64,000 nucleotides of DNA, taken from NCBI GenBank assembly GCA_965229215.1, contig OZ245864.1, forward strand, positions 3,931,346 to 3,995,345. The letters run 5' to 3'. This DNA is from Tagaea sp. (GTDB lineage: Bacteria > Pseudomonadota > Alphaproteobacteria > CACIAM-22H2). The first letter of the stretch is position 1, and every line of letters begins with the position of its first letter. The translations under genes were made by a program, and so were the position numbers. This document shows positions 4,504-59,504 of the stretch, in pieces. The notes under the pieces are model-generated. The model saw only the letters and a program-made list of their open reading frames with translations, did not search any database and was not told where the DNA came from.

Positions 4504-4632
4504 CGTACGAAGGAGATAGACCGAAACGGCCGGCCGGGCCAGCGCGCCGCGGGCGCGTAACTGCGCACCGTCTTGACAAGCCCCCGCCACCTGATGACAC
4601 ATATGTACACGAACGACCTGCCGGGAGCACCG

Positions 4633-8558: not shown

Positions 8559-8612
8559 GGGACATCTGCTAGACTCGAAGTCGCTGCATCTGGGTCACGA
8601 CAGGAGGCTTGT

Positions 8613-25576: not shown

Positions 25577-25690
25577 ACCCTCACCCCGCAACGTATACGT
25601 TGCGCCTCTCCCGCAAGCGGGAGAGGGGACGCTCACGACAAGCTCGCTAGATCACCCTCTCCCGCTTGCGGGAGAGGGCAGGGGTGAGGG
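25577..25690. repeat. REP-like nested palindromic element pair (inverted copies of CCCTCACCCC...CTCTCCCGCAAGCGGGAGAGGG)
   Basis: Copy 1 (25577-25627) carries the inner perfect palindrome GCAACGTATACGTTGC plus CTCTCCCGCAAGCGGGAGAG. Copy 2 (25655-25690) is its reverse complement without the insert. Confidence 0.6.
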
Positions 25691-25692: not shown

Positions 25693-26331
25693 TTACTGGC
25701 TGACCCAAAGAATGCGGTGGCAGAACACGACGTCGGAGATGTCGAACGTGCGTTCGGCGTGCGCGGCGTTGAGGCTGGTCAGTTCCAGCTTGCGCTGGCC
25801 CTTGCGGATCAGCTGCTTGGCCATCACTTCGCCGGCCGTCGTCTTGACGACGACGCGGTCGCCGCGGCGCAAGCTGGCCTGCGGCGAGACGACGATCGTG
25901 TCGCCGTCGCGATAGACCGGCTCCATGCTGTCGCCCGCCACCATCAGCGCGTAGGCGTGCGTGTCGGCAAGCTCGGGGAACAGCAGTTCGTCCCAGCCCG
26001 TACCGGTGGGATAGCCGGCGTCGTCGAAGAAGCCCTTCTCGCCCGCCTGCGCATAGCCGATGACGGGGACACGGCGCATGGCGCCGGCCACGCTCGGCAC
26101 CGTGCCGATATAGCCGACGAACTCCGACATCGTGGCGCCGGTCGCCTCGAGGATCTTCGAGATGCTCTCGGTCGACGGCCAGCGCGGCCGGCCGTCGCGC
26201 GACACGCGCTTCGACTTGTTGAAGGTGGTGGGATCGAGGCCGGCGCGGCGCGCGAGACCCGACGGGGAGAAGCCATGATCGCCTGCGAGCTGATCGATGG
26301 CCTGCCAAACATCTGCGTGACGGAGAATCAT
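25693..26331 (-). CDS. S24-peptidase / phage-repressor-like (COG2932, LexA-like) transcriptional regulator
   Basis: N-terminal HTH (GFSPSGLARRAGLDPTTFNKSKR) plus a C-terminal S24 autopeptidase with Ser (GDSMEP) and Lys (IRKGQRK). 212 aa. Divergent from the phage-like cluster. No GTTC-N7-GTTC SOS box upstream. Confidence 0.8.
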   Translation of the reverse strand: MILRHADVWQAIDQLAGDHGFSPSGLARRAGLDPTTFNKSKRVSRDGRPRWPSTESISKILEATGATMSEFVGYIGTVPSVAGAMRRVPVIGYAQAGEKGFFDDAGYPTGTGWDELLFPELADTHAYALMVAGDSMEPVYRDGDTIVVSPQASLRRGDRVVVKTTAGEVMAKQLIRKGQRKLELTSLNAAHAERTFDISDVVFCHRILWVSQ

Positions 26332-26476
26332 GTGTGAATTTTTACTCAGGTTGTTGCGGATTGCATTAGGTATGTATGCCAATTTGAATTTCAAAAAGAA
26401 ATATTCCTTATATCCAAACGGACTGCTTCCCTTTATCAAGTTGTTTCCAATTTGTTCTGTAAACCGGAGATGGCGG

Positions 26477-26944
26477 ATGATGGCGGGCGCGAAGGCGGCG
26501 GGAAGGGGCGGGCGGACGATGGAAGGGGCCGTCGCGTCGGACGATGCGGCCGCCCTCGTCGTGTTCCGCGACCAGACCGAAATCGCCTGGCTGCGGGGCC
26601 TGCGCCGCGGCTTCCGGCACTGCGCGGTCTGGGTGCGCGCCGGCGACCTGTGGGTCGTGCAGGAAAGCCTGTCGAACCGGACAATTCTGGGGGTCTGGCA
26701 GGCCGACCGGGAGGCCGATCTGGTGGCCGCCCTGCGCCGCGCCGGGCACCGGGTCGTGCGCGCCCGGATCCGGCCGGCGCCGCGGCGCCTCGCCCCGCCG
26801 CTGCCCTTCAGCTGCGTGGAGGCGGTCAAGCGCGTGCTCGGCATCCATGCCTGGCATGTGCTGACGCCCTGGCAGCTCTACCGGCATTTGATCCGGGGCT
26901 CTCGAAAATCACATTTGACAATTACCCTAAATAGGAATATTTAA
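26477..26944 (+). CDS. Hypothetical protein, first gene of the phage-like cluster (start 26477 or 26519)
   Basis: Very high GC3 in this frame, versus low GC3 in the overlapping alternative frame. Flanked by AT-rich islands. No recognised family. Confidence 0.5.
   Translation: MMAGAKAAGRGGRTMEGAVASDDAAALVVFRDQTEIAWLRGLRRGFRHCAVWVRAGDLWVVQESLSNRTILGVWQADREADLVAALRRAGHRVVRARIRPAPRRLAPPLPFSCVEAVKRVLGIHAWHVLTPWQLYRHLIRGSRKSHLTITLNRNI
26915..26943 (+). promoter_or_regulatory. Candidate σ70-type promoter ahead of the portal operon
   Basis: TTGACA (26915-26920) followed by a 17-nt spacer and TATTTA, within an AT-rich island. Confidence 0.35.
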
Positions 26945-27053
26945 AGTTTCAGGCTCATAAATCGAGCTCTTTCCGGCTCCTTCCAGTCCTTGAATGGCTC
27001 TGGAGGGGCCGGAAATAGGTACGGATACCGTCCCCTCGAACCGGAGATGTCCC

Positions 27054-27275
27054 ATGGGTGGTTTTTTCTCGCCGTCGATTCCCGAACCCCCGCCGCCCCC
27101 GCCGATGCCGGCGTTGCCCGAGCCGGTCGATCCGGACAAGGAAGCGCGCGAGGCGCGCATCAAGGCGATGATCCGCCGCCGTCGCGGCCGGGCCGGCCTC
27201 GTGGCGACGGGCGAGCGCGGCGTGCTGCTCGCACCCGCTGCCGCGCAGGGCCTCGCCTCGAAGCTCGGGGAATGA
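27054..27275 (+). CDS. Small Pro-rich hypothetical protein (73 aa), translationally coupled to the portal gene
   Basis: GGAGA RBS and near-perfect GC3. Stop overlaps the portal start (ATGA). Sequence MGGFFSPSIPEPPPPPPMPALPEP. Confidence 0.5.
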   Translation: MGGFFSPSIPEPPPPPPMPALPEPVDPDKEAREARIKAMIRRRRGRAGLVATGERGVLLAPAAAQGLASKLGE

Positions 27276-28795
27276 CGATGGCCGAGATCCGATCCGAAAC
27301 GGCCCCGCGCGACACGCTCGCCCGCTTCCGCCGCGCCCGCCAGGCGCGTGGCGCCTGGGAGCCCGCGTGGCAGGATTGCTACGAGTTCGCGATGCCGCAG
27401 CGCGTGGCGTCGGGCGGCGGCGAGCGGCGCGGCGAACGCCTGTTCGACGCGACCGCCGGCGATGCGGCCGAGCAGTTGGCCGCATCGCTGATGTCGCAGC
27501 TTGTACCCCCGTGGTCGCGCTGGTTCGGCCTGCAGCCGGGCGGCGACGTGCCCGAGGAACACCGCGCGGCGCTCGGCGAGGTGCTGGAGAAGGCGGCCGC
27601 ATCGTTGCAGGCGCATTTCGACCGCTCGAACTTCGCCATGGAGATCCACCAGTGCTTCCTCGACCTCGTCGTCGCGGGCACGGCGATGCTGCAGTTCGAG
27701 GAGGCGCCGGCGGGCGCGGACTCCGCGTTCCGCTTCGCGGCCGTTCCGCTGGCGAGGCTGGCACTCGACGAGACCTCGGAGGGCGCGTTCGACATCGTCT
27801 TCCGCACGAGCGAGCTTTCGACCGAGCGGCTGGTCGAGCGTTTCCCGGACGCGGCGCTGCCCGACGCGCTGCGCAAGCCCGATCCGCGCGGCGGGGCCGA
27901 GCGCAGGCACACGATCGTCGAGGCGATGTTCGCCGAACGGCCCGGCTACCGCTACATGGCGCTGCTGGAAGACGGCGGCGACGCGTCGCAGCCCGTCGTG
28001 CTCGCCGAAGGGAATTTCGCGCAGCCGCCCTTCCTCGCCTTCCGCTGGCTCAAGGCGCCGGGCGAGGTCTATGGCCGCTCGCCCGTGATGAAGGCGCTGC
28101 CCGACATCAAGACCGCGAACAAGGTCGTCGAGCTCGTGCTGAAGAACGCCTCGATCGCCGTCACCGGCATCTGGCAGGCCGACGACGACGGCGTGCTCAA
28201 TCCCGCCAACATCCGCCTGCAGCCGGGCACGATCATCCCCAAGGCGGTCGGCTCGGCGGGCCTCACGCCGCTGGAGGCGCCCGGCCGTTTCGACGTGTCG
28301 AACCTCGTGCTCGACGATCTGCGCGGCCGCATCCGGCATGCGCTGCTCGCCGATCGCCTCGGCCAGGTCGACAGCCCGACGATGACGGCGACCGAAGTGC
28401 TCGAGCGCTCGGCCGAGATGTCGCGCATCCTCGGCGCCACCTACGGCCGCCTGCAGGCCGAGCTGCTTACGCCGCTGATCGCGCGCGCCATCGCCATCCT
28501 GCACCGGCGCGGCGAGATCCCGCCCGTGCTGGTCGACGGCCGCGTGGTCGAGCTCCAGTACAAGTCGCCGCTGGCGCTGGTGCAGGCGCAGGCCGACGTG
28601 CGCAACGCGATGCTGTGGATCACGCAGGCGGCCAGCCTCGGGCCCGAGGCGATGGCCGTCGTCGACGCGGGCGCGGCCGCGCGCTGGATGGCGCGCGCGC
28701 TCAGCGTGCCGCCCGATCTCGTGCGCCCGCCGGCCCCGGCCGCGGCGCCGTTGCAGATGCTCGCGCAGGCTCTCTCCGCCCAACCCCGGCAATGA
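27272..28795 (+). CDS. Podovirus (T7 gp8-like) head-to-tail connector / portal protein
   Basis: 507 aa. Collinear similarity to T7 gp8, including W.P.WQDC..F..P, the YGRS motif and TATEVLERSAEMSRILGATYGRLQAELLTPLI (compare T7 TAEEIRYVASELEDTLGGVYSILSQELQLPLV). Confidence 0.85.
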   Translation: MTMAEIRSETAPRDTLARFRRARQARGAWEPAWQDCYEFAMPQRVASGGGERRGERLFDATAGDAAEQLAASLMSQLVPPWSRWFGLQPGGDVPEEHRAALGEVLEKAAASLQAHFDRSNFAMEIHQCFLDLVVAGTAMLQFEEAPAGADSAFRFAAVPLARLALDETSEGAFDIVFRTSELSTERLVERFPDAALPDALRKPDPRGGAERRHTIVEAMFAERPGYRYMALLEDGGDASQPVVLAEGNFAQPPFLAFRWLKAPGEVYGRSPVMKALPDIKTANKVVELVLKNASIAVTGIWQADDDGVLNPANIRLQPGTIIPKAVGSAGLTPLEAPGRFDVSNLVLDDLRGRIRHALLADRLGQVDSPTMTATEVLERSAEMSRILGATYGRLQAELLTPLIARAIAILHRRGEIPPVLVDGRVVELQYKSPLALVQAQADVRNAMLWITQAASLGPEAMAVVDAGAAARWMARALSVPPDLVRPPAPAAAPLQMLAQALSAQPRQ

Positions 28796-28809
28796 AGGAA
28801 GGAACGACC

Positions 28810-29526
28810 ATGACCGATCCGATCGCAGCTCCCCCCGCACCGCCCGCACGTCCCGACCATGTGCCCGAGAAATTCTGGGATGCGGGAAGCGGGCAGGTCC
28901 GCGTCGACGCGCTCTCGAAATCCTATGCGGAACTCGAGCGCAAGCTCTCCGGCATGATCCCGGGGCCGAAATCGCCCGAATGGGAGCAGAGCTGGCGCAG
29001 GGCCGCCGGCGTGCCCGATGCGCCCGACGGCTATCGCATCGCGCCCAAGGACGATCTCGTCGCCGTCGATGCCGACGTGAACCGCCGCCTGCATGCGGCC
29101 GGCTTCACGCCGCAGCAGGCCCAGCTCGTCTACGACCTGGCGGTCGAGCGGCTGGTGCCGATGGTGCAGGACTATGCGGGTTCCTACCGTGCCGAACTCG
29201 CGCACGAGAAGCTCGTGGCGGAATTCGGCGGGGCGGAGAAGTGGGCCGCCCTCGCCCCGCAGATCGCGCGCTGGGGGCAGAAGAACCTGCCGGCACCCGT
29301 CTACGACGCGCTCGCCTCGACGCCCGAGGGAATCCGCGCGCTGCACCGGATGATGAATTCGGGCGAGCCCAGCCTGCGCGGCTTCGGCGCGCCCGCGGCC
29401 CCGGCCAGCGAGGACGACCTGCGCAGGCTGATGGCCGACAAGCGCTACTGGCGCGACCACGATCCGGCGATCGTGCGCACCGTCACCGAAGGCTTCAGGC
29501 GCCTCTATCCCGAACGCGAAAAGTGA
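28810..29526 (+). CDS. Putative scaffolding protein (position-equivalent to T7 gp9)
   Basis: 238-aa acidic helical protein lying between the portal and capsid genes. AAGGAAGG RBS. Assignment is by synteny only. Confidence 0.45.
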   Translation: MTDPIAAPPAPPARPDHVPEKFWDAGSGQVRVDALSKSYAELERKLSGMIPGPKSPEWEQSWRRAAGVPDAPDGYRIAPKDDLVAVDADVNRRLHAAGFTPQQAQLVYDLAVERLVPMVQDYAGSYRAELAHEKLVAEFGGAEKWAALAPQIARWGQKNLPAPVYDALASTPEGIRALHRMMNSGEPSLRGFGAPAAPASEDDLRRLMADKRYWRDHDPAIVRTVTEGFRRLYPEREK

Positions 29527-29536
29527 GAAAGACGGC

Positions 29537-29609
29537 TTGACAGGATGACAACTTAAGATTATATTCAAGACAACGTGCCGCCCGTGCTTGCCGCGGAGAA
29601 CGGCACGTT
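29537..29609 (+). promoter_or_regulatory. Near-consensus σ70 promoter (TTGACA-N17-TATATT) plus 5'-UTR hairpin upstream of the capsid gene
   Basis: TTGACA at 29537-29542 and TATATT at 29560-29565. Inverted repeat AACGTGCCG (29572-29580) / CGGCACGTT (29601-29609). Confidence 0.5.
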
Positions 29610-29707
29610 CCCTTCACATCTCCCGCGAAACGGGGTCGGCGCATCCATTTGCGATGCACCGGCAACCCTCGCTTGCGGGTCCCCCAACCGGTCACACAGA
29701 GGGACCC

Positions 29708-30520
29708 ATGCCCGACATCGACAAGGCTTTCGTCAAGCAATACGAGAACGACGTCCATCTCGCCTTCCAGCGGATGGGCTCGAAGCTGCGCACGAGCGTG
29801 CGCACGAAGAAGAACGTCCAGGGCGCTTCGACCGTCTTCCAGAAGATGGGTCGCGGTGCCGCGACGACCAAGGCGCGGCACGCGGCCGTGCCCGTCATGA
29901 ACGTGGACCACGCGACCGTCGAGGTTTTCCTGAAGGACTACTATGCGGGCGAATGGCTCGACGCGCTCGACGAGATCAAGGGGCCGAGCGACGAGCGTTC
30001 GGCGGTCGTGAATTCCGGCGCCTACGCGCTGGGGCGCAAGACCGACGAGCTCATCATCGACGCGCTGCAGACCTCGACGAACTTCGCAGGCACGGCGGCC
30101 GACGGCCTCACCAAGGCCAAGATCCTCGAGGCCTTCGAGAAGCTGGGCGCGTCCGACGTGCCCGACGACGGCGACCGCTGCGCGGTCATCGGCTGGAAGC
30201 AGTGGAGCGAGCTGCTCCAGATCGAGGAGTTCGCCAACGCCGACTATGTCGGCGAGGACGAGCTGCCCTGGCAGGGCACGCAGGCCAAGAAGTGGCTCGG
30301 CACGCTGTGGATGCCGCATTCGGGCCTGATCGCGGCCGGCGGCGTGCGCTCGTGCCACTGGTACCACAAGGCGGCCGTCGGCCACGCGTCGGGCTGCGAG
30401 GTCAAGTCGGACGTCACCTGGCACGGCGACCGCGCGTCGTTCTTCATCAGCAACATGATGAGCCAGGGTGCCGGCATCGTCGATGCGGCGGGCGTCGTCA
30501 CGCTGCGCTGCAAGGAGTAG
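29708..30520 (+). CDS. Major capsid protein (T7 gp10-like, HK97 fold)
   Basis: 270 aa. N-terminal region resembles T7 gp10 (TSVRTKKNVQGASTVFQKMGRGAA vs SISSGKSAQFPVLGRTQAA). Sits between the scaffold-like and tubular genes. AGAGGGA RBS. Confidence 0.65.
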   Translation: MPDIDKAFVKQYENDVHLAFQRMGSKLRTSVRTKKNVQGASTVFQKMGRGAATTKARHAAVPVMNVDHATVEVFLKDYYAGEWLDALDEIKGPSDERSAVVNSGAYALGRKTDELIIDALQTSTNFAGTAADGLTKAKILEAFEKLGASDVPDDGDRCAVIGWKQWSELLQIEEFANADYVGEDELPWQGTQAKKWLGTLWMPHSGLIAAGGVRSCHWYHKAAVGHASGCEVKSDVTWHGDRASFFISNMMSQGAGIVDAAGVVTLRCKE

Positions 30521-30531
30521 GGAGAAAACAG

Positions 30532-30801
30532 ATGGCCTTCGAACTCAAGAACCTGTCCGTGCTCGCCTACGCCAACGGCTTCACGCTCTGGCACTACACC
30601 ACGCCGGATGCGGCGGCCGCCGTCGACGACGCGGGCTATTTCGACGCCGCCGCCGACATGCTGCGCGCGGGCGACATGATCCTCGCCAACACCGCCACCG
30701 GCGGCGGCGCCCAGAGCGGCGTCTTCGCGGTGGCGGGCGTGGCGGCCGGATCGGTCGATGCCGCGAGCCTCACGCCGTTCGGCGCGTCCAACCCCGACTG
30801 A
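30532..30801 (+). CDS. Small hypothetical virion-associated protein (89 aa)
   Basis: GGGAGAAAAC RBS. High GC3. Lies between the capsid and tail tubular A genes. Confidence 0.45.
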   Translation: MAFELKNLSVLAYANGFTLWHYTTPDAAAAVDDAGYFDAAADMLRAGDMILANTATGGGAQSGVFAVAGVAAGSVDAASLTPFGASNPD

Positions 30802-30868
30802 GACCCGGAAACCGGCGGGCGGGTTCTTCCGCCCGCCGGATCTTCCCCAGGAATTCCAGGAGAACCCG

Positions 30869-31438
30869 ATGGCCCTCACGTCCATCGCGCTGTGCGCGCG
30901 CGCCCTCGTCAAGCTCGGTGCCCGGTCGATCGCCTCGTTTGACGAGGGTACGGCCGAAGCCGAGATCGCGGCCGTGCTCTATCCCTCGATCCGCGACGGG
31001 CTGCTGTCCGCGCACCCGTGGAGCTTCGCGACCGCGCAGGCGTCGCTCGCGCGCCTCGCGCGCACGCCGGTCGCCGACCATGCCCACGCCTACCAGCTTC
31101 CCGCCGATTTCCTGCGCGCCCTTTCGCTCGGTTCCGGCACGCGCGGGCGGGGCACGGAGTACCGGATCGTCGAATCGGCGCTGCACTGCGACGCCGACGC
31201 GGTCGTGCTTTCCTACGTGTTCCGGCCCGACGAGACCGGCTTCCCGCCTTTCTTCGACACGCTGCTGATCGCGACGCTCGCGGCCGAATTCTGCCTGCCG
31301 GTGACCGAGAGCACGACGCGCGCCGAACTGCTGCGCCGCACGGCCGAATCCGAGTTCCGCCGCGCGCGCCTGATCGACGCCCAGCAGGACACGCCCCAGC
31401 GCATCGAGGACTTCACGCTGGTGGAGGCGCGCCGATGA
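30869..31438 (+). CDS. Tail tubular protein A (T7 gp11-like)
   Basis: 189 aa, close in size to T7 gp11 (196 aa), with a similar N-terminal pattern (ARALVKLGARSIASFDEG vs NDILASIGEPPVSTLEG; HPWSF vs RGWTF). Confidence 0.7.
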   Translation: MALTSIALCARALVKLGARSIASFDEGTAEAEIAAVLYPSIRDGLLSAHPWSFATAQASLARLARTPVADHAHAYQLPADFLRALSLGSGTRGRGTEYRIVESALHCDADAVVLSYVFRPDETGFPPFFDTLLIATLAAEFCLPVTESTTRAELLRRTAESEFRRARLIDAQQDTPQRIEDFTLVEARR

Positions 31439-33342
31439 GCGTCGTGCGCCTTGCCAAGACGAGCTTCGCCTCGGGCGAGATCGGCCCCGCGATGTACGGC
31501 CGCAGCGACCTGCGCGCGTTCGAGAACGGCGCGCGCACGCTGCGCAACGTTTTCGTGCAGCCCTCGGGTGGCGTGCGCCGCCGGCCGGGCCTCGTGCATA
31601 TCGACCTGCTGCCCGGCCCTGCGCGCCTGATCGGGTTCGAGTTCAACACCGAGCAGGCGTATCTGCTCGCGGTGCTGGGCGGCGAGACGCGCGTGTGGCG
31701 CGAGGACGAGCGCGTCGCGACCTTCGCCACGCCCTGGTCGGCCGCGCAGATCGGCCAGCTCGCCTGGACGCAGAGCGCCGACACGCTGCTCGTCGTGCAT
31801 CCCGACGTGCCGCCGCGGCGCATCACGCGCACGTCGGACACCGCGTGGAAGGTGGAGCCGTGGGCCTTCTTCGAGGAGAAGGGCATCTGCCGGCAGCCCT
31901 ATCACAAGTTCGCGGCCGACGAGGTGACGCTGACGCCGAACGGCACGGCCGGCACGGTGACGCTGAGCGCCTCGGCCGACGTGTTCGTCGCCGGGCATGT
32001 CGGGCTGCGCTTCCGCGTGCAGACGAAGGAGATGAAGATCGATGCCGTGGCGGGCCCGCGCACGGCCACGGCCACGCTTTGCACCGAGCAGACGCTGCCC
32101 GACACGAGCGCGACGCGCGACTGGGAGGAGCAGGCCTTCTCCGACGTGCGCGGCTGGCCGGTCAGCGTCACGTTCCATCAGGACCGGCTGGTGATCGGCG
32201 GCTCGCGCGACCTGCCCAACCGGCTGTGGCTGTCGAAATCCGGCGACCTGTTCAATTTCGACCTGGGTACCGGCCTCGACGACGAGGCGATCGAGTTCGC
32301 GCTGCTGTCCGACCAGGTCAACGCGATCCGGCACGTCTTCTCGGGCCGCCACCTGCAGGTCTTCACGTCGGGGGCCGAGTGGATGGTGTCGGGCGAACCG
32401 CTGACGCCCGAGAACGTCCAGCTCGACCGCCAGACCCGCATCGGCAGCCCGATCGACCGGTCGGTGCGCCCGCGCGACGTCGACGGCGCCACGCTGTTCG
32501 CCGGGCGCGGCGGGCGCGACCTGCGCGAGTTCCTGTTCGCCGACGGCGAGCAGGCCTATCAGGCGACGGATCTGGCGCTGCTCGCACCCCATCTGGTGCG
32601 CGATCCCGTCGCCATCGACTACGACCCCGACGACCGGCTGCTGCATGTCGTCAACGCCGACGGCACGCTCGCGACGCTGACGGTCTATCGCGCCGAACAG
32701 GTGACGGCGTGGACGCTGCAGACCACGCAGGGCGCGTTCCGCGCGGTCGCGGTGGCGGCGAACGAGACGTATCTCGCCGTCGAGCGCGACGGCGCATGGT
32801 CGATCGAGAGCTTCGATGCGGACTACGCGACCGATGCGGCCGTCTGGATCGAGCCGCCGGCCGGTGCGGCGCACTGGTCGGGGCTTTCGCATCTCGACGG
32901 CAAGGCGGTCGAACTCGTCGGCGACGGCGTGCCGCTGGGCACGACCGTCCCTGCGGGCGGCAAGGTGCCGGTGCTTGCACCCGTCGCGGAACTCGAAGCC
33001 GGCCTCGGCTTCGTTTCCGTCATCGAGCCGCTGCCGCCGTCGCTTGCGGCAGCGGGCGGTGCCAGTCCGCGCAGCGTGCGCCTGATCGAGGCGACGTTCC
33101 GCCTGCTGGAGGCGCGCCAGATGCGCCTCGACACCGGCAGCGGCCCCGTCGACGTGCCGTTCCGCGCCTTTGCGGCGGGCGGAATGCTCGACCGGCCGGT
33201 CGCCGGCTTCACCGGCGAGAAGCGCGTGCGTGCACTCGGCTGGAAACGCGCGGGCGTCGACGCGCTGTGGCGCATCGAACTGCCGGCACCGCTGCCTTTC
33301 ACGCTGCTCTCCGTAACCCAGGAAATGAAGGTGAACGACTGA
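31435..33342 (+). CDS. Tail tubular protein B (T7 gp12-like)
   Basis: 635 aa. N-terminal similarity to T7 gp12 (SFASGEIGP...R.D.....NG......GGVRRRPGL vs NLKGGISQQP..LRYPDQGSRQVNG.....GLQKRPPL). ATGA overlap with the tubular A gene. Confidence 0.8.
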   Translation: MSVVRLAKTSFASGEIGPAMYGRSDLRAFENGARTLRNVFVQPSGGVRRRPGLVHIDLLPGPARLIGFEFNTEQAYLLAVLGGETRVWREDERVATFATPWSAAQIGQLAWTQSADTLLVVHPDVPPRRITRTSDTAWKVEPWAFFEEKGICRQPYHKFAADEVTLTPNGTAGTVTLSASADVFVAGHVGLRFRVQTKEMKIDAVAGPRTATATLCTEQTLPDTSATRDWEEQAFSDVRGWPVSVTFHQDRLVIGGSRDLPNRLWLSKSGDLFNFDLGTGLDDEAIEFALLSDQVNAIRHVFSGRHLQVFTSGAEWMVSGEPLTPENVQLDRQTRIGSPIDRSVRPRDVDGATLFAGRGGRDLREFLFADGEQAYQATDLALLAPHLVRDPVAIDYDPDDRLLHVVNADGTLATLTVYRAEQVTAWTLQTTQGAFRAVAVAANETYLAVERDGAWSIESFDADYATDAAVWIEPPAGAAHWSGLSHLDGKAVELVGDGVPLGTTVPAGGKVPVLAPVAELEAGLGFVSVIEPLPPSLAAAGGASPRSVRLIEATFRLLEARQMRLDTGSGPVDVPFRAFAAGGMLDRPVAGFTGEKRVRALGWKRAGVDALWRIELPAPLPFTLLSVTQEMKVND

Positions 33343-33914
33343 TGGGCGCTCTCACGATTCCACAGATGATGATGGCGCAGACCGCCATGGCGGGCGCGGG
33401 CCTCGTCCAGGGCCTCGCCAATTCGCATGCCGCCGCTTCGCAGGCACAGGCGCAGGCCCGCGCGCAGGCGCAGATGGCGCAGGCACAAGCCGAACGCCAG
33501 CGCGAGCTGCTCGACCGGCAATACGCATCCGAGACGCGCCGGCGCACCAACCTGCTCGAACGCGCGACCGCCAAGGCGCGCGTCTCGTTCGGCGCGCGCG
33601 GCCTGTCGCCGACCGACGGTTCGGCGGGCGCATTGCTCGACGGCATCGAGACCGATTTCGGCCTCGACGAGGCCGAGCGCACGCAGGATTACGGCATGCG
33701 CCGCTCGGCCCTCGACGCCGGGCTCGCGGACTCGCTGCAGCGCATCGATTTCGCGACAGGCCGAAACCTTCTCGACCGCGAGTCCGACATCCAGCGCCGC
33801 GTCCTCGGCCTGCTGAACTGGGGCACGCGCAGTTTCGGACGCGGCGGCGGATTGCCGCGCGGCCCGGTCGGCGACTTCCCCGTCAATTCCGGCCTCTACG
33901 ACAACCTTGCCTGA
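33342..33914 (+). CDS. Small internal virion protein candidate (190 aa, Gln/Ala-rich; gp13/gp14 position)
   Basis: AQ-rich low-complexity N-terminus (AASQAQAQARAQAQMAQAQAERQ). Lies between the tubular B and tail fibre genes. Confidence 0.4.
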   Translation: MGALTIPQMMMAQTAMAGAGLVQGLANSHAAASQAQAQARAQAQMAQAQAERQRELLDRQYASETRRRTNLLERATAKARVSFGARGLSPTDGSAGALLDGIETDFGLDEAERTQDYGMRRSALDAGLADSLQRIDFATGRNLLDRESDIQRRVLGLLNWGTRSFGRGGGLPRGPVGDFPVNSGLYDNLA

Positions 33915-33925
33915 GGAGCACTGAC

Positions 33926-36574
33926 ATGAGCGACCACATCAAGATCGCCGCCAAGCTGCCGCGCTGCCGCTATCGCGCGAACGGCATGCAGCGCGTCTTC
34001 ACGTTCGATTTCGCCGTCTTCCGGCCCGAGGATGTCGAGATCCGCATCGACGGCACGCCGGTCGCGGGCGGCTATGCCGTCGCGGTCGGCGCACTCGGCA
34101 CGGGTGCCGCCACGCTCGACGCGGCACCCGCCGACGGCGCCATCGTCACGCTGAGCCGCCGCCTCGTCGTGCGGCGCGAGACGGATTTCCAGGAAGGCGG
34201 CGAGCTGCGCGCCAAGACGCTCAACGACGAGCTCGATTTCCAGACGGCCGCTCTCCAGCAGGTCGAGACGGCCGCCGCGCGCGCCCTGCATCTGCCGGTC
34301 GACGATCCGGACGATGCCACGACGCAGCTTCCGCGCGCGACGGCGCGCGCGAACCGCGCGCTGGTGTTCGATGCGGCCGGAAATCCGGCCGTGTCGGCCG
34401 ACCTCTATGCCGACCAGGCGGCGGCATCCGCCGCCAGCGCCGCTTCCGCCGCCGCTTCGGCCGGTTCGGCCGCTTCGGCTTCCGCCAACGCTTCCGATTC
34501 CGCCGTCGCCGCCGCGACGGGCTCGGCATCGGCCGCGAGCTCCGCCGCTTCGGCCGCCGCGCAGGCGACGTCGGCGAGCGCATCGGCGGCAGGTGCGGCT
34601 TCTTCGGCGCTCGCCGCATCCGGTTCGGCCGCATCGGCCGCTTCGGCGGCCGCCGGGCTCTCGGCGCTCGCGATCGCGTGGAATTTCGAATCCGCGGACG
34701 CGATGGCCGAACCCGCGGCCGGGGCCCTGCGCTTCAACGCCGCCACGCCTGCCGGCGCGAGCGCGCTGGCGCTCTCGGCGAACGCGGCCGATCCCGGCAA
34801 TCCCGACATCTCCGGCATCGTCGCCGCGTGGAACGCCAGCACCAGCACGTCGGCGCGCGGCCAGCTCGTGCTGCGCAAGCGCGGTACGCCCGCGACGTTC
34901 GCCGCCTTCAAGGTCTCGGGCGTGACGGACAACGGCGCCTGGCTGCTGGCCGACGTGGTGCCCGTCGCATCGGCCGGAACGTGGAGCGCCGGCGATACCG
35001 CCTATGCCGTCTTCACGGCCGCGGGCGACAAGGGCGACACCGGCAGCCTCGCCGGCGGCGGCTCGCTGACCGCGTCGATTGAGGAAGCCAAGCGGGTCGC
35101 GATTGCCTCCGCCGCGACGACGAACGTGTGGGGCGGGGACGGGAACTTCGTCCACGTCACGGGGAACGCGACGATCGCGAGCTTCGGCATCGCGCCGCAG
35201 GCGGGTTCGCAGCGCACGATCGTGTTCGACGGCGCGCTGACGCTGGTGCATGCGGCACCCGCACTCCAGCTGCCGGGCGGGGCCAGCATCGTCACGGCGC
35301 CGGGCGACCGCGCCATCGTGCGCGCGGACACGCCGGCCAATCACATCGTCGTCGCCTATACGCGCGCCGACGGCACGCCGCTGGCGCTGGGCAATGCCGG
35401 ACCCGTGCAGGCGATCCTTGCGGGCGAAACACTCGCCGACCGCGATCTCGTCTACCAGGACATCTTCAACCAGCGCGGCGGCGGGTCGACGCGCTGGTAC
35501 AGGGTCGATGCCGACGCGACCGGGCCGGTGCGCATCTCGCCGACGATCGGCATCGCGCTGGGCGCGATCGCGGGGGGAAGCACGGGCGCAGCGCAGATCC
35601 GCGCGGGGCGCGTGGCGGGGTTCGCGGGCCTGGTCGCGGGCGGCCCGGTCTGGGCGTCGGCGACGCCCGGCGGCGTGACCCAGTCCCCGCCGCCGCTTCC
35701 GGCGGGCGGCACGCAGCATGCGCTGCGCCTGGTCGGGATCGCGGCGTCGGCGGCCGAGATCGATTTCGCGCCCGACGACGACACGCTGTTCGTGAAGACC
35801 GGCGACGCGCTCGCGCACGGCGGCGTCCTGACGGTCGAGCACTGGAGCGATGTCGGCGCGCCCGACCGCGTGCCCTATGCCTCGACGATCGCGCAGGTCT
35901 TCGCGACGACCGTTTCGCGCGGCGCCGGCTCCAACGGCACCACCTACAACGGCTACACCGTGCGTCTCAGGTTCGCCGCGAGCGTGCTGTCGACGTCCGG
36001 AAGCCGGGTGCGCGTCACGTTCAAGGCGGGCGGCACGCAGCCGCTTGCGGTGAACAACGCCTATATCGGCGAGGCGGCGGCCGGCGGCAACGCCTGGGAT
36101 TTCGCAGCATCCCCCGCGCGCCTCACCTTCGGCGGCGGCGCCAACGGGTTTTCCATTCCCGTCGGCGCGAGCATCGTCTCCGACAGCGTCGTGTTCGCGC
36201 TCGACGAGGCGAAGAGCCACATCGTCTCGCTCGAAGTGCCGAGTGCGGGCGGACCATACGGCACGGACTACACCTCCGTGCCGGCCGGCTGGTCGACCTA
36301 CTACAAGTTGGGCGGCGTGGCGGATGCCGGCGCGGTGGCGCCCGGCGGATACAGCCAGGATTCCGCGAACACATATCTCGTCACGGCGGTCGAGGTTCTC
36401 GTCGTCACCCGCCGCGAGCCCGAGCCGGTCTTTCCCGAGGCGCGCTTCGCGGGCGCCGCCGACAGGGTCACCTGCCGCTACGACGACGGGGCGGGCGGCA
36501 ACGCCGACACGCGCACGAGCTTCGTGAACCGGACCGGCGCGCTGCAGGCGCTCGCCGTCGAGGTGCAGCTGTGA
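33926..36574 (+). CDS. Tail fibre protein (T7 gp17-like N-terminal adaptor domain, Ala/Ser-rich shaft, C-terminal beta-rich domain)
   Basis: 882 aa. N-terminus (IKIAAKLPRCRYRANGMQRVFTFDFAVFRPEDVEIRIDGTPV) parallels T7 gp17 (IKTVLTYQLDGSNRDFNIPFEYLARKFVVVTLIGVDRKVL). Contains a long A/S repeat region. Confidence 0.7.
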   Translation: MSDHIKIAAKLPRCRYRANGMQRVFTFDFAVFRPEDVEIRIDGTPVAGGYAVAVGALGTGAATLDAAPADGAIVTLSRRLVVRRETDFQEGGELRAKTLNDELDFQTAALQQVETAAARALHLPVDDPDDATTQLPRATARANRALVFDAAGNPAVSADLYADQAAASAASAASAAASAGSAASASANASDSAVAAATGSASAASSAASAAAQATSASASAAGAASSALAASGSAASAASAAAGLSALAIAWNFESADAMAEPAAGALRFNAATPAGASALALSANAADPGNPDISGIVAAWNASTSTSARGQLVLRKRGTPATFAAFKVSGVTDNGAWLLADVVPVASAGTWSAGDTAYAVFTAAGDKGDTGSLAGGGSLTASIEEAKRVAIASAATTNVWGGDGNFVHVTGNATIASFGIAPQAGSQRTIVFDGALTLVHAAPALQLPGGASIVTAPGDRAIVRADTPANHIVVAYTRADGTPLALGNAGPVQAILAGETLADRDLVYQDIFNQRGGGSTRWYRVDADATGPVRISPTIGIALGAIAGGSTGAAQIRAGRVAGFAGLVAGGPVWASATPGGVTQSPPPLPAGGTQHALRLVGIAASAAEIDFAPDDDTLFVKTGDALAHGGVLTVEHWSDVGAPDRVPYASTIAQVFATTVSRGAGSNGTTYNGYTVRLRFAASVLSTSGSRVRVTFKAGGTQPLAVNNAYIGEAAAGGNAWDFAASPARLTFGGGANGFSIPVGASIVSDSVVFALDEAKSHIVSLEVPSAGGPYGTDYTSVPAGWSTYYKLGGVADAGAVAPGGYSQDSANTYLVTAVEVLVVTRREPEPVFPEARFAGAADRVTCRYDDGAGGNADTRTSFVNRTGALQALAVEVQL

Positions 36575-38058
36575 GCGAGCCCGCACCGCCGAGTTTCCCC
36601 GACTTCGTCGAGCAGTGGAACGCGCTGCAGGGGCTCGCGACGCCCGCCGTGCACCGGCGCATGGCCGACTGGCTTGCCGACGCGCGCGCGGACCGGGCGA
36701 CGGGCCTGGTGCTGCTCGCGTTCCGCTCCAGCGGCAAGTCGACGCTGGTCGGCCTCTTCTGCGCCTGGCTGCTCGCCTGCGATCCCGACCTGCGGGTGAT
36801 GGTGCTGGCGGCGGAAGAGGCGCTGGCGCGCAAGATGGTGCGCAACGTCAAGCGCATCGTCGAGCGCCATCCGGCGACCGCGGGCCTCAAGCCCGCGCGC
36901 AAGGAGCTGTGGTCGGCCGACCAGTTCGTCGTCGAGCGGCGCGCGGAGCTGCGCGACCCCTCGATGCTGGCGCGCGGGCTTGCGGGCAACATCACCGGCA
37001 GCCGGGCCGACATCGTCATCTGCGACGACGTCGAGGTGCCAAACACCTGCGACACGCACGCCAAGCGCGCCGACCTGCGTGCGCGCCTGCTCGAGATCGA
37101 CTACGTGCTCGTGCCCGGCGGGCTGCAGCTCTATATCGGCACGCCGCACAACTACTATTCGATCTATGCCGACGCGGCGCGCGAGGAGGCGGGGGAGACG
37201 GCGCCGTTCCTCGACGGCTTCCGCCGCCTGTCGGTCCCGGTCCGCGACGCGGCGGGCGACAGCGCGTGGCCCGAACGCTTCGACGACGCGCGGATCGGGG
37301 CGGTGCTGACGCGGACCGGTCCGCTCAAGTTCCGCGCGCAGATGATGCTGGAGCCGGTCGCCGACGGCGCCTGCCGTCTCGATCCGGACCGCCTCGTTCC
37401 CTACGACCTGCCGCTCGACTATTCGGAAGGCAACGGCCAGCCGGTGCTGTCGATCGGCGGGAAACGCATGATGTCGGCAAGCTGCTGGTGGGACCCGTCC
37501 TACGGCTCGCCCGACGGCGACCGGTCGGTCGTCGCCATCGTCTTCACCGACGAGGACGGGCATGCCTGGCTGCACGACATCGCGTACCTGTCGGTGCCGC
37601 AAGGCGACGCGCGCGGCGACGAGGCAAGCGCCTTCTGCCGGCAGGTCGCCGAATTCGCGCGGCGCAACCACGCGCCGGGCGTGCGCATCGAGACCAACGG
37701 CCTCGGCGGCTTCCTGCCCGGCATCCTGCGCAAGGAGATGTCGGCCGCCGGCATCGGCGCCGCCGTGACCGGCGCGCACAGCCGCGTCGCGAAGGCCAAG
37801 CGCATCCTCGACGCGTTCGACGCACGGCTCGCCGCCGGCATGCTGCATGCGCACGCGCGCATCCGCGAAACGCCGTTCCTCGCCGAGATGCGCGAATGGC
37901 GGGCCGACATCCCCGGCATCCGCGACGACGGGCTCGACGCCGTCGCCGGCTGCCTTGCGAGCGAACCGTTGCGTCTCGCGCCCGCCCCGCGACCCGAGCG
38001 CGCGGACTGGCGGCCGGGGGCGCCCGCGCGCCTCGTGCCGAGCGATTTCGAGATCTGA
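36571..38058 (+). CDS. Terminase large subunit (T7 gp19-like)
   Basis: GTG start overlapping the fibre stop (GTGA). Walker A (AFRSSGKSTLVGL). Acidic nuclease-domain residues. 495 aa. Confidence 0.8.
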   Translation: MSEPAPPSFPDFVEQWNALQGLATPAVHRRMADWLADARADRATGLVLLAFRSSGKSTLVGLFCAWLLACDPDLRVMVLAAEEALARKMVRNVKRIVERHPATAGLKPARKELWSADQFVVERRAELRDPSMLARGLAGNITGSRADIVICDDVEVPNTCDTHAKRADLRARLLEIDYVLVPGGLQLYIGTPHNYYSIYADAAREEAGETAPFLDGFRRLSVPVRDAAGDSAWPERFDDARIGAVLTRTGPLKFRAQMMLEPVADGACRLDPDRLVPYDLPLDYSEGNGQPVLSIGGKRMMSASCWWDPSYGSPDGDRSVVAIVFTDEDGHAWLHDIAYLSVPQGDARGDEASAFCRQVAEFARRNHAPGVRIETNGLGGFLPGILRKEMSAAGIGAAVTGAHSRVAKAKRILDAFDARLAAGMLHAHARIRETPFLAEMREWRADIPGIRDDGLDAVAGCLASEPLRLAPAPRPERADWRPGAPARLVPSDFEI

Positions 38059-38076
38059 GAAGGAAAGGGAAGCATC

Positions 38077-38373
38077 ATGGACATGTTCGAACTCTCGCCC
38101 GGCCTGGCGCTCGTCGCGGCGTCGGACGCCTCGAGCTTCGGCGCGATCGCCTGGCTCCTCTGGAAGCGCCACCAGGATCACGACCGCGTGCTCGACCGGC
38201 TGCGCCAGGCCTGCCTCGACGAGACGCGCGAGCTGCGACAGGCGCTGGCCGAGTTCAAGCTGGAGGTCGCGCGCGGCTACGCTTCGATCGGCTACATCAA
38301 GGACGTGGAGAACCGCCTGACGGCGCATCTGCTGCGCATCGAGGCGAAACTCGACGGCGCGTCGGGGGGCTGA
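38077..38373 (+). CDS. Small single-TM protein (holin- or spanin-like candidate)
   Basis: 98 aa with one TM helix (ALVAASDASSFGAIAWLLW) then a coiled coil. Follows the terminase gene. Confidence 0.4.
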   Translation: MDMFELSPGLALVAASDASSFGAIAWLLWKRHQDHDRVLDRLRQACLDETRELRQALAEFKLEVARGYASIGYIKDVENRLTAHLLRIEAKLDGASGG

Positions 38374-38374
38374 G

Positions 38375-38920
38375 ATGATTCCGGCATTGATCGCCCAGAT
38401 CGGCCTGCCGCTGCTGGCGAAGCTCGTCGGTGGTGCCTTGTCGCGCGTCGACCATCCGGCCGCGCGCGAAGCCGCGCGCACGCTCGCGGCGGCCGGCGAC
38501 GACCTCACGCCCGAGCAGATCGCCGAAGCCAACCGCCATCTCGAAGCGCTGGCGAAGAGCGAAAGCGAGGAAGACCGCGAGACGCTGCGCGAGGTCAACG
38601 CGTCGCTGCGCGCCGAGGCCGCCAGCGAGGACGCCTATGTAAGGCGCATGCGGCCGACCTTCGGCTACGTGATGGCGGCGACGTGGGCGGCGCAGATGGG
38701 CGCGGTCGCGTGGGTCGTGGTGCGCGCACCCGCCGAAGCGGCCGCGGTGATCGAGGCGCTGGGCGCGCTGTCGGTCGTCTGGTCGGTCGGGCTGTCGGTG
38801 CTGGGCGTCTATGTCTACAAGCGCTCGGCCGACAAGGCCTTGTCTGCGGGGGCCCTGTCGGCGGGCGTGCCGGTGACGGGGCTCGTCGAGCGGCTGCTGC
38901 GGGCAGGAGAACGGCGCTAG
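38375..38920 (+). CDS. Membrane protein resembling 3-TM GTA-type holins
   Basis: 181 aa. Helical N-terminal region then hydrophobic segments near the C-terminus ([41 protein letters not shown]). Last gene of the cluster. Confidence 0.4.
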
Positions 38921-40590
38921 GTCGCGGCCGCCTGTTCCTGCTGCGCGCCGCCGGTCGCGTTCGTCAGCAGCCGCTCGGAGATGCGGCGCAGGCCGACGAT
39001 GTTCTCGCTCACCGTCGCGAGGGAGACGCGCACGTCGGCCGAACTCGTGCTGACCGCGTTGATCTCGCGGCTGACGTTCTTGATCTTCGCGGAGACCTCG
39101 CGCGAGGCCTCGGCCGTCTGCGCCACGTTGCGCGCGATCTCCTGCGTGGCGGAACCCTGCTGCTTCATCGCGGCGGCGATGGCGCCGGCCACGCCGTCGA
39201 CTTCGCGGATGCGCTCGCCGATCTCGGCGACGGCCGCGACGGCGGCCTGCGTGGCGTTCAGGATCTCGGCCACGAGGCGGTCGATGTCCTCGGTCGAGCG
39301 GCCGGTCTGGTTGGCGAGGTTCTTCACTTCGGATGCCACGACCGCGAAACCCTTGCCGGCCTCGCCCGCGCGCGCGGATTCGATCGTGGCGTTGAGCGCG
39401 AGCAGGTTCGTGCGCCCGGCGATCTGGCCGATGAGCTTGCTCACATCCGAGATCTTCGCGACCGCGTCCGACAGCGAACGGATCGTCGACTGCGCCTTCT
39501 CGCCGCTGGAGACGGCAAGGCGCGTGACGCCCGAGGCGCGCGCGACCTGCGCGGAAATCTCGCGGATCGAGGCCGAAAGCTGCTCGGCCGCCGAAGAGAC
39601 GGTCTGCACGTTGACGAGGGCGAGTTCGGAGGCGGTGGCCACGGCCTCGCTCTCGGCCAGCACCTCGTCGGCGAGCTTGGTCATGCCCAGCGCCGCGTCG
39701 TCGACCGTGCCGGTGGCGGCGGCGATCGAATCCACGGCGACGGCGGTCTCGCGCACCGTCCGGGCCATCTCGACGGCGCGCAGCTTGCGGCGTTCCTCGG
39801 ATTCGGCCGCCATCTTCGCCGTCTCGGCCCGCAGCCTTTCGTTTTCGACCGCGTTGTCCTTGAAGAAGGAGACGGCGCCGGCCATGTCGCCGACCTCGTC
39901 GGTGCGCCCGCTGCCGGGGATCTCGACGGCGAGGTTGCCCGAGGCGAGCCCGCTCATCGCCGTGGCCATCGCGCGGATCGGCCAGCCGATGTTGCGCGCG
40001 AGCAGGAGCCCGACGACCGCCGCCGCGACGACGGTGAAAAGGGCGACGGCGGAAAGCGCCAGGACGACGTTGTCGGCGATCTTCCCGGCATCCTGCCGGA
40101 AATAGTAGCCCTGTTCCTTCGCCGCCTCGTTGACGATCGTCAGTTTCGTCTCGAGCGACTTCAGCAGCGATTCGCGTTCCTTGAGGAGTTCCGCGGTTTC
40201 GGGATTCGCGAGGATCCGTTCGCGCAGGGCGCTCCACTTCGCCAGCGTCTGCTTGACGTCTTCGATGCGGGCGATGCTTTCGGGATCGTGGGCGCGTTCC
40301 TCGACGATCGCGATATCCTCGAGGATCGCTTCTTCGCGCTTCTTCAGTGTCGCCGGATCGACCTTGCCGCCGTCCCTGCGCTGCTGCAGGGCACGCGTGA
40401 CGGCAAGGTCGAGCCTGGCGAAGTTGGTCATCGCCGAAGCCGCGAAGTCGCTCGCCATCAGCGGGCCGTCATAGAGGCCCTCGGTCAGCGAGGCGATCTG
40501 CCGCAGCCCGAAGACGGCATACGCACCCATCGCCGTCGTCAGCAGCGCGACGACGGTGAGGCAGACGAGGATCTTTCCGCGAATGCGCAT
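38917..40590 (-). CDS. Methyl-accepting chemotaxis protein (557 aa)
   Basis: TM1, periplasmic helical domain, TM2, HAMP and conserved MCP signalling domain ([31 protein letters not shown]). Convergent 4-bp overlap with the last cluster gene. Confidence 0.85.
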
Positions 40591-56596: not shown

Positions 56597-59305
<2,709 letters not shown>

Positions 59306-59504
59306 GCAGATAGACCTCGATAATCGCGGATTTCGCCGACGGGCGGCCCCCGGCGTCGGGCAGGGGAGAGATAGGGCCAGAAGTTCGGCATGTCAACGCG
59401 GCCCTGCGACGCTTTCCGGCGGCCCGTCCGGCCTTGTTCGGGCCCGCTTTCCCGTGCAAGAGTGCCGCCGCCCATTTCCGGGCCACGACGAAAGGATTCC
59501 ACCG

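Follow-up and report, generated by a model that had tools for sequence, protein, structure and literature searches.

Is a compact run of T7-like late genes in an alphaproteobacterial chromosome what is left of a prophage, or is it a particle system that the host has kept? The question is raised by a 13.2-kb block in a 64-kb stretch of a Tagaea sp. genome (contig OZ245864.1, positions 3,931,346 to 3,995,345 of the forward strand; hereafter the window). The block lies between lysS (23960-25576), whose product is a class I lysyl-tRNA synthetase (LysRS), and a gene for a methyl-accepting chemotaxis protein (MCP; 38917-40590, minus strand). A reading made from the letters without database searches (the sequence-only reading) had proposed a candidate domesticated podovirus, either a gene transfer agent (GTA) or a tailocin-like element. 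Our analysis makes it likely that the element (25693-38920) descends from a podovirus of T7 morphology, was domesticated long ago and became fixed in the chromosome, serving as an SOS-controlled particle system that is probably GTA-like.

The element contains one divergent CI-like S24 repressor and 13 co-directional plus-strand genes (Table 1). Because the window has ~70% GC, genes were called from third-position GC bias, and functions were assigned from Pfam, PHROGs and NCBIfam profiles together with sequence matches to solved structures. As regards membership of the T7-like (Autographiviridae) type, a gp8-type portal, a gp9-type scaffold, an HK97-fold capsid, gp11, gp12 and a gp17-type fibre N-terminus are all present, and the gp15/gp16 ejectosome proteins, the single-subunit RNA polymerase and the replication genes are absent. 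Matches to solved structures came from T7 for gp8 and gp19, from Cobetia phage Carin-1 for its portal, adaptor and nozzle, and from Legionella phage LME-1 for the portal and nozzle as well as the capsid. The profile and sequence searches upheld what had been read by eye for the portal, scaffold, capsid, tubular A and B, internal protein, fibre N-terminus and large terminase. The previous count of 12 co-directional genes was right about direction and missed a 73-aa gene (g1b). The block had also been said to start near 26330, but the ATG there overlaps the start codon of the divergent repressor, a gene overlooked in that reading, and the first rightward gene (g1) begins at 26477. The starts of the portal, capsid and adaptor genes were likewise revised (Table 1).

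Neither the window nor the related loci examined yielded an integrase, excisionase, replication initiator or primase. There is no tRNA in the window, no att-like direct repeats were found in it flanking the block, and all these searches agree with the absences listed previously. T7 RNA polymerase, DNA polymerase, primase-helicase, ligase, single-stranded DNA-binding protein, exonuclease, gp15, gp16 and gp18 gave no significant match in the window, the sole RNA polymerase match being a chance 35-residue alignment to g1b (E 0.04). The early genes of the phages HTVC010P and Hodr, described below, were not found anywhere in it either. The GC content and third-position GC (GC3) of the block are host-like in a composition comparison within the window.

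When one genome per species was scanned, at least 508 related loci were detected. The nozzle protein has more than 3100 homologues, and among the best 120 nearly all are 626-643 aa long (with one 436-aa fragment), the full-length ones being 57-83% identical and many of them encoded on megabase-scale chromosomes. The best 80 of these loci come from Tagaea/Azospirillum-like metagenome-assembled genomes (MAGs), Magnetospirillum, Terasakiella, Caenispirillum, Telmatospirillum and Magnetovibrio, and also from the Acetobacterales Elioraea, Belnapia, Siccirubricoccus and Crenalkalicoccus; across these several families and two orders the nozzle remains at least 54% identical. Closest among the relatives is a MAG, "uncultured Azospirillum" or Tagaea-like. 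The window proteins were mapped onto 161 loci (genomes and IMG/VR), and searches for absent genes covered ~165 loci. Gene order is collinear in 118 of the 127 loci with at least four core genes, and the span from repressor to terminase is 11.1-19.0 kb (median 12.6 kb). Related IMG/VR contigs measure 4-26 kb except for one 44-kb provirus call, and the "proviruses" called in isolate genomes are typically 12-16 kb. No homologue of the replication or early genes of T7, HTVC010P or Hodr was seen in the ~165 loci. A recent deletion from a full-length 35-45 kb T7-like prophage, which the sequence-only reading had named as a danger to its proposal, would predict such a prophage at this locus in relatives; none was found, all spans being as short as given above. 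The 44-kb contig was considered as a complete phage and rejected, as its tested open reading frames (ORFs) gave no replication or integration domains. In a plasmid collection no close relative was present (best match, 32% identity).

We then consider whether these genes are under selection. Ratios of nonsynonymous to synonymous substitution rates (dN/dS), calculated by the NG86 method and approximate at 70% GC, were 0.12-0.30 for the element genes against the closest relative L001 (dS 0.29-0.56), except for g8 with 0.47, and were well below 1 for all 13 genes. The neighbouring host genes gave 0.24 (MCP), 0.31 (peroxidase) and 0.08 (lysS) at similar dS. The capsid was full length in 131/131 loci, the nozzle in 159/159, the terminase in 103/103 and the portal in 79/83, and stop codons interrupted any given gene in at most three loci. 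The other danger foreseen for the proposal, that the genes are decaying in other strains, is not what we observed: the core genes are nearly all intact across ~160 loci. An inert, slowly decaying prophage remnant could still be imagined in which the repressor alone is selected, for immunity against related phages, and the structural genes are carried along by linkage. In favour of such a remnant, no gene is better conserved among close relatives than the repressor (93-97% identity, dN/dS ~0.07-0.13), and the clade of the window has lost four accessory genes. We consider this explanation very improbable, since the dN/dS values of all 13 genes resemble those of neighbouring host genes and the core genes are full length in 95-100% of ~80-160 loci from two orders; with divergence so large (nozzle down to 54% identity), neutral decay would have destroyed them.

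Pairwise protein distances were compared with those of the adjacent LysRS for the nozzle, portal, capsid, adaptor and terminase. The two sets are correlated (Pearson r 0.90-0.98, slope of 0.8-1.0, Mantel p ≤ 0.0005), so that the element evolves at a housekeeping pace and in step with its flank. Long residence had been proposed from the 4-bp overlap between the end of the element and the chemotaxis gene. The overlap is real and convergent (38917-38920), and the proposal is now backed by two further observations, namely this co-variation and the flank in Elioraea, which belongs to a different order and has helicase, lysS, one inserted gene, repressor and element in succession as in the window. 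A rearranged Rhodospirillales locus still lies near methylmalonyl-CoA mutase, as in the window. The comparison across related genomes that had been suggested as a check thus came out in favour of a locus that is conserved in relatives and under purifying selection, and on this evidence the element is not a recent remnant.

The same comparison bears on the possibility of a mobile satellite or minimal temperate phage that uses helper or host enzymes for excision and replication and has inserted repeatedly near lysS. Half of the loci with enough upstream sequence do not adjoin lysS, some arrangements are permuted, repressor and fibre modules have been exchanged, and IMG/VR pipelines label the regions as proviruses; all this would fit mobility. 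The co-variation with lysS at a slope near 1 and the fully host-like composition speak against it, as does the lack of integrase, excisionase, replication initiator, primase and att repeats in the window and the related loci examined, and no related contig resembles a free 30-40 kb genome. We therefore give a mobile element very little credence and return to a chromosomally fixed derivative.

To which phages is the element related? In a comparison set of 50,697 phage records, the closest cultured phage was Pelagibacter phage EXVC031P Hodr (capsid 46%, portal 36-37% and nozzle 29-37% identity), followed by other HTVC010P-type, Methylophilales, Yersinia and Vibrio podophages at ~30%. Hodr and the HTVC010P-type phages share the late gene order of the element, i.e., portal, (Bbp19-like), scaffold, capsid, decoration-like, adaptor, nozzle, gp14-like and fibre, but they are 34-35 kb infectious phages (34.2 kb for Hodr) with an early/replication module. 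Homologues in the element family exist for 11-12 of the 59 Hodr genes: portal, Bbp19-like, scaffold, capsid, a small post-capsid gene, adaptor, nozzle, fibre, endolysin and one small gene. In Hodr the nozzle gene is immediately followed by genes for proteins of 159, 783 and 1247 aa, in the pattern of gp14/gp15/gp16, and the 1247-aa protein weakly matches T7 gp16. Neither these 783- and 1247-aa proteins nor the whole early region nor the terminase of Hodr has a homologue in the window or the ~165 loci, and the same is true of T7 gp15 and gp16. Because the nearest phage keeps gp15/gp16-type proteins and the element family has none, their family-wide lack is a derived loss.

The nearest solved relatives of the portal, capsid, adaptor and nozzle are those of LME-1 and Carin-1, which are distant in sequence and differ from the element in being genuine phages. 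LME-1, which was isolated as a phage, is a mobile integrative element, and internal virion protein matches have been reported for it (PMC12407071). Judged by similarity, the virion genes are closest to those of Hodr, the HTVC010P type, LME-1 and Carin-1, and the terminase is of the T7 gp19 type. It matches termin_lrg_T7 with 406 bits against a cut-off of 150, phrog_38 at 1e-75 and the T7 gp19 structures 8dgc/4bij at ~3e-20, and by this comparison it is a T7-type replacement. In the HTVC010P paper, the closest homologue of the HTVC010P terminase was located in a Rhodospirillaceae bacterium; since the HTVC010P terminase has no match to that of the window, this homologue may lie outside the element family. 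Taken by gene content, the functions kept are the head, DNA packaging, a short tail with a fibre and lysis, and those lost are integration, replication, transcription genes and the gp15/gp16-type ejection proteins.

One record in the comparison set stood apart. MT838907.1 ("Bacteriophage sp.", human faecal sample, 5084 bp, unannotated) has a portal 59.5% and a capsid 55% identical to those of the element, far above the cultured phages. It probably comes from a copy of the element in a bacterium, a fragment of which was deposited as a phage.

How would such an element be controlled? The repressor matches Peptidase_S24 (3e-21) and HTH_26 in Pfam and the transcriptional repressor family phrog_4 (3e-29), and its sequence has a GDSMEP serine motif and a downstream lysine. 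It was tried as LexA itself and rejected (33 bits vs a cut-off of 111). Across 54 loci the repressor is always divergent from, and adjoins, g1 or an extra small gene. The motif GTT(C/T)-N7-GTTC or its complement is found in the spacer between repressor and g1 in 43 of these 54 loci, and distant genera mostly have the exact GTTC-N7-GTTC, ~85-92 nt from the repressor start. Within the spacer, alignment with seven relatives revealed invariant blocks amid diverged DNA. The bare pattern occurs twice in the 64-kb window when both strands are counted, which equals the chance expectation (~2). GTTC-N7-GTTC is the established LexA-binding motif of Alphaproteobacteria; the conserved box together with a self-cleaving repressor suggests SOS control, and points to a switch operated through the putative LexA box and the CI-like repressor.

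From the gene content, we infer the following course of induction, particle formation, DNA loading and transfer. In an undamaged cell, the divergent CI-like S24 repressor would silence the rightward genes, with host LexA probably adding repression at the GTT(C/T)-N7-GTTC box. Upon DNA damage, active RecA would promote self-cleavage of both the repressor and LexA, and host RNA polymerase would transcribe the element from sigma-70-type promoters, one before the structural genes and a strong one before the capsid gene. Portal, scaffold and capsid proteins would assemble a procapsid, the T7-type terminase would fill it, and the adaptor, nozzle, gp14-like protein and fibre would finish the particle. 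Because excision and replication are both beyond the element, what is packaged would have to be chromosomal DNA. The holin, g11 and probably the g1 cysteine hydrolase would then lyse the producer, and the particles would adsorb to related cells via the fast-changing fibre tip. As gp15/gp16 are missing, the DNA would reach the periplasm at most, and its uptake would depend on the recipient.

The conservation of capsid, portal and terminase excludes a tailocin: the "tailocin-like" half of the sequence-only proposal does not hold for an element that retains genes for capsid, portal, scaffold and terminase, all of them intact and conserved. This conservation argues that DNA packaging matters. A different kind of weapon has nevertheless to be considered, a PBSX-like killer particle that is SOS-induced and packages host DNA, and whose selected function is to kill or damage competing strains upon adsorption. 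Control of the SOS type resembles, as a matter of general knowledge, that of pyocins, colicins and PBSX. The fibre tip diversifies fast, as strain-specific targeting predicts, and the gp15/gp16 DNA translocators were lost whereas the gp14-like protein of the outer-membrane-pore type was kept. Known tailocins have shed their heads, however, and the terminase, portal, scaffold and capsid, intact here under purifying selection, would be superfluous for a pure killing device. In addition, Pfam, PHROGs and PADLOC searches of the element proteins found no toxin-like domain. We regard a killer particle as unlikely, and a GTA-like, DNA-packaging system as probably the better account.

The element has the features by which a GTA is recognized in several respects. 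It consists of chromosomal phage-like genes without replication, excision or integration functions of their own, and it shows vertical inheritance and purifying selection, the host marker being a linked gene. As for host control, the conserved box points to LexA, and the element also retains a phage-type repressor. The attributes of an ordinary inducible prophage (integrase and att sites, a replication module, a complete infection apparatus) are lacking, with a CI-like repressor present.

Compared with RcGTA (Rhodogtaviriformidae), the element is alike in being a chromosomal cluster of ~13-15 kb that encodes head, tail, packaging and lysis functions but neither replication nor integration, in its vertical inheritance and purifying selection across a large alphaproteobacterial clade, and probably in regulation at the level of the host. 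Both have a holin of the same Pfam family (GTA_holin_3TM), the only family shared. Both also seem to lack virion machinery for crossing the inner membrane, which for the element is concluded from the lack of gp15/gp16; RcGTA delivery relies on competence genes of the recipient. The two differ in ancestry, a podovirus of T7 morphology as opposed to an HK97-like siphovirus, and the element has no prohead protease, tape measure or tail tube, its structural genes all belonging to T7-type families. Its terminase is T7-type rather than headful-type, an SOS box and a CI-like S24 repressor would control it where RcGTA has CtrA, GafA and quorum sensing, and its host clade is Rhodospirillales plus Acetobacterales, unlike that of RcGTA. 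The nearest capsid relative has a T=7 head, so that the head of the element is perhaps not smaller than the element itself, again unlike RcGTA. The most specific form of the proposal, an independent and ancient alphaproteobacterial GTA lineage that derives from a podovirus, is switched by SOS, delivers chromosomal DNA to the periplasm only and has converged on RcGTA, is put forward tentatively, as a possibility that we would not yet favour.

Other known systems are less close. PBSX of Bacillus subtilis and the R/F pyocins of Pseudomonas are also chromosomal, non-replicating sets of phage-derived particle genes released by damage-induced lysis, an analogy that for the element rests on the SOS box. 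Pyocins are controlled by the S24-type self-cleaving repressor PrtR, and PBSX packages host DNA. They differ in being derived from myoviruses or siphoviruses, pyocins have no head or terminase, and there is no sequence relationship to the element. The Faecalibacterium element FpGTA is described as GTA-like with an inferred podovirus-like morphology, and is likened to our element by this description; it differs in its Firmicutes host, its two operons and its sequenced encapsidated DNA (PMC12946183). Mitomycin-induced particles from Azospirillum lipoferum and strain B510 contained random 10-kb host DNA and were attributed to other, RcGTA-like prophage regions (PMC3899980). Full-text literature searches found no description of the element family.

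Several points weigh against the domestication reading. The family is known here from genes alone, and many of the loci are metagenome bins. Estimates of dS saturate beyond the nearest relatives, and co-divergence was measured against a physically linked gene, LysRS, rather than a species tree. The lysS gene is just upstream in 15 of the 29 loci with enough flank and does not adjoin in the rest, and some loci are rearranged or split. There are also signs of phage exchange: the repressor allele was replaced in L008/L009, fibre C-termini were swapped, and the terminase is unrelated to that of Hodr, the closest phage. Such signs, though they speak of limited exchange, caution against a view of purely vertical descent. 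A T7 gp18 query had no match, and the element has no recognized small terminase. With a T=7 capsid as its nearest solved relative, the head may hold more than 13 kb, unlike that of classical GTAs. Finally, the clade of the window (the window and L001-L010) is the most reduced within the family, lacking a 125-aa gene after the repressor (present in 52 loci elsewhere), a Bbp19-like gene (61 loci), a 98-aa gene before the terminase (~50 loci) and a Hydrolase_2 endolysin (63 loci); without that endolysin, lysis would have to be carried out by the unproven g1 enzyme or by a product encoded elsewhere in the genome.

With these points taken into account, the element remains a strong candidate for an undescribed system, an independent, GTA-like, widespread and ancient domestication of a phage. 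To our knowledge, independent domestication of phage particles has been described in no more than a handful of systems, and the well-studied one of Alphaproteobacteria, RcGTA, derives from a siphovirus. If the reading is correct, a second and unrelated alphaproteobacterial domestication, from a T7-type podovirus, would exist in at least 500 species-representative loci, and the conversion of a virus into a host-controlled DNA-packaging particle would be a repeatable evolutionary outcome. The family would also be a natural experiment on which viral functions are retained (head, tail, terminase and lysis) and which are dropped (replication, integration, RNA polymerase and inner-membrane ejection proteins). 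Hypotheses could be addressed in the culturable Magnetospirillum, Terasakiella and Elioraea: SOS-induced short-tailed particles with host DNA, a T7-type terminase acting on chromosomal DNA, and the g1 cysteine hydrolase as a lysis or entry enzyme. There is a consequence for annotation as well, in that provirus pipelines list regions of the element as viral contigs and one fragment was deposited as "Bacteriophage sp."

Table 1 Genes and putative control sites of the element, with window coordinates and the principal matches
Feature	Position	Strand	Description
CI-like repressor	25693-26331	-	212 aa; N-terminal helix-turn-helix (HTH) and C-terminal Peptidase_S24 self-cleaving domain
Divergent control region	26332-26476		145 bp, AT-rich; invariant block TTGCATTAGGTA at 26361-26372
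LexA (SOS) box-like site GTTTCCAATTTGTTC	26443-26457	+	GTTT-N7-GTTC, 20 nt 5' of g1 start codon
g1	26477-26944	+	Conserved, 155 aa; predicted papain-like (permuted NlpC/P60- or YiiX-like) cysteine hydrolase
Promoter-like TTGACA-N17-TATTTA	26915-26943	+	Found by eye; starts AT-rich spacer before g1b/structural genes
g1b	27054-27275	+	73 aa (MGGFFSPS...), directly 5' of portal; GC3 frame switches here
Portal, T7 gp8 type	27272-28795	+	Pfam Head-tail_con 1e-133
Scaffold, T7 gp9 type	28810-29526	+	Pfam Phage_T7_Capsid 3.8e-10
Sigma-70-type promoter-like TTGACA-17-TATATT	29537-29565	+	11/12 consensus; 5' of capsid gene
Capsid-gene leader	29566-29707	+	Conserved; an upstream block (CGGCAACCCTC) could base-pair with the start codon and ribosome-binding site
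Major capsid, HK97 fold	29708-30520	+	270 aa; Pfam Phage_capsid_2 2e-77
g5	30532-30801	+	89 aa; phrog_18004 4e-19; found in 123 loci
Adaptor (tubular A, T7 gp11 type)	30869-31438	+	phrog_394 4e-46; Carin-1 connector 8ck1_E 2e-5
Nozzle (tubular B, T7 gp12 type)	31435-33342	+	phrog_376 2e-136
g8, gp14-like internal virion protein	33342-33914	+	Pfam T7_gp14 4.9e-6; phrog_418 1.7e-4
Fibre	33926-36574	+	Conserved N-terminal tail-attachment domain (~165 aa), Ala/Ser-rich linker, variable C-terminal part
Large terminase, T7 gp19 type	36571-38058	+	NCBIfam NF033889 termin_lrg_T7 2.5e-121, full length
g11	38077-38373	+	98-aa single-pass membrane protein, long C-terminal helix; phrog_29007
Holin (GTA_holin_3TM)	38375-38920	+	PF11351 2.6e-12; phrog_3427 holin 7e-8; stop codon in 4-bp MCP overlap

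Among the head genes, the portal matched LME-1 (9e-38), Carin-1 (5e-23) and T7 gp8 (~5e-16) in the PDB, and the nearest solved relative of the capsid was LME-1 9eg4 (2.5e-22). The protein encoded by g1b is 53% identical to that of a 68-aa gene at the equivalent position in Magnetospirillum and weakly like HTVC010P gp03; it is a probable small virion or head protein. The g5 protein is 36% identical to the product of an 81-aa Hodr gene at the matching position. LME-1 has a T=7 head of ~60 nm and a decoration protein encoded after the capsid gene (PMC12407071). This is the position of g5 in the element, suggesting by analogy that g5 encodes a head-decoration protein. An extension of the capsid by frameshifting, in the manner of T7 10A/10B, was also considered: g5 is in the -1 frame, yet it is conserved as a gene by itself, with a start codon and a ribosome-binding site of its own, and the idea was rejected.

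For the tail, the adaptor homologues are 189 aa long, and the nozzle matched Carin-1 8ck1 (6e-90) and LME-1 9efk_M (1e-53). The T7_gp14 score of g8, 27.0 bits, is exactly the Pfam cut-off. This protein is the only one of ejection type in the element and evolves fastest (dN/dS 0.32-0.66). The fibre can be aligned over its N-terminal 17-44% only, even among close relatives, and its tail-fibre family matches are confined to the N-terminal ~130 aa (phrog_1640 tail protein, residues 13-122); it matches HTVC010P gp22 and gp23, and the fibre of relative L164 has a weak Phage_T7_tail match. PDB sequence searches gave nothing for g5, g8 and the fibre.

With regard to lysis, the 155-aa g1 protein from the start at 26477 is identical to a database protein. 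A Foldseek search of g1 against the PDB gave nothing significant, and we regard it as a candidate lysis or cell-wall enzyme. The two last genes had been described as small membrane proteins; of the two, only the last encodes a recognizable holin, and g11 is a single long helix with a membrane segment at its N-terminus. In g11 the N-terminal hydrophobic helix is followed by a basic patch, the C-terminal motif is invariant, the structure model is one long helix (pLDDT 86) and dN/dS among the closest relatives is 0.09-0.14. Its Magnetospirillum counterpart sits immediately 5' of the endolysin, and g11 is probably part of the lysis cassette. A role as small terminase was rejected for this membrane-anchored single helix. 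In relatives that have it, the 98-aa helical protein encoded just before the terminase (phrog_31793; e.g., L165 14619-14915) is a possible small-terminase candidate.

Further observations concern the control sites. The TTGACA-N17-TATTTA site is weak (the second hexamer has 3/6 positions of TATAAT) and was missing from the consensus scan, whereas the TTGACA-17-TATATT site is the sole such site in 13.7 kb and is kept in relatives. The spacer between scaffold and capsid (29537-29712, compared with L001-L007 and L010) contains this promoter and a 140-250-nt leader with invariant GGGACAACC, GGGTCG, CGGCAACCCTCGCTTGCGG and ACAGAGGGACCCATGCC. The leader could mask the ribosome-binding site of the capsid gene. 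All predicted pairs are invariant across eight relatives and thus give no covariation support, and there was no Rfam match, as for the window as a whole. Repeated ACAAC(C/G)G-like motifs in the leader might be a protein-binding site. In L008/L009, both Tagaea/Azospirillum-like, the leader is different and has GATAAC repeats; their repressor is 47-52% identical and the GTTY-N7-GTTC box is gone, with structural genes still at ~70%. This looks like replacement of the immunity region within an otherwise vertically inherited element. Where the 125-aa protein is present, its gene lies just 3' of the SOS box (e.g., L165 4745-5122), and it is a possible regulator.

Some loci have unusual arrangements. 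Magnetospirillum L081 has an MCP fragment and a radical-SAM gene inside the element (6124-6813 and 8314-9348), and in L033 the terminase and capsid blocks are separated by a flavodiiron/metallo-beta-lactamase gene (4622-6466). For L164, L036 and L038 the retrieved locus contains genes for the tail, terminase and lysis only, and any head genes would lie elsewhere.

The lysS and repressor genes converge, and 25605-25677, which lies between them, has two perfectly complementary 23-nt arms, each nearly palindromic (CCTCTCCCGCAAGCGGGAGAGGG). Most simply, the arms are two hairpins that act as terminators in both directions, and they would mark the left edge of the element. All other window genes are ordinary cellular ones (GroEL, SecA, methylmalonyl-CoA mutase, ABC transporter, CtaA and Fur), and PADLOC found no defence-system match. 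Directly after methylmalonyl-CoA mutase there is a 1971-aa ORF (48125-54040, plus strand) with ~74% GC and a marked positive AT skew. It has no Pfam, PHROG or T7 match except for a sub-threshold apolipoprotein-like repeat; it was rejected as a gp16-like protein for lack of a PHROG or T7 match, and does not appear to belong to the element. Another ORF (58968-60365, plus strand) overlaps the 5' end of secA on the opposite strand and matches phrog_16409, a family of unknown function (1.8e-33).

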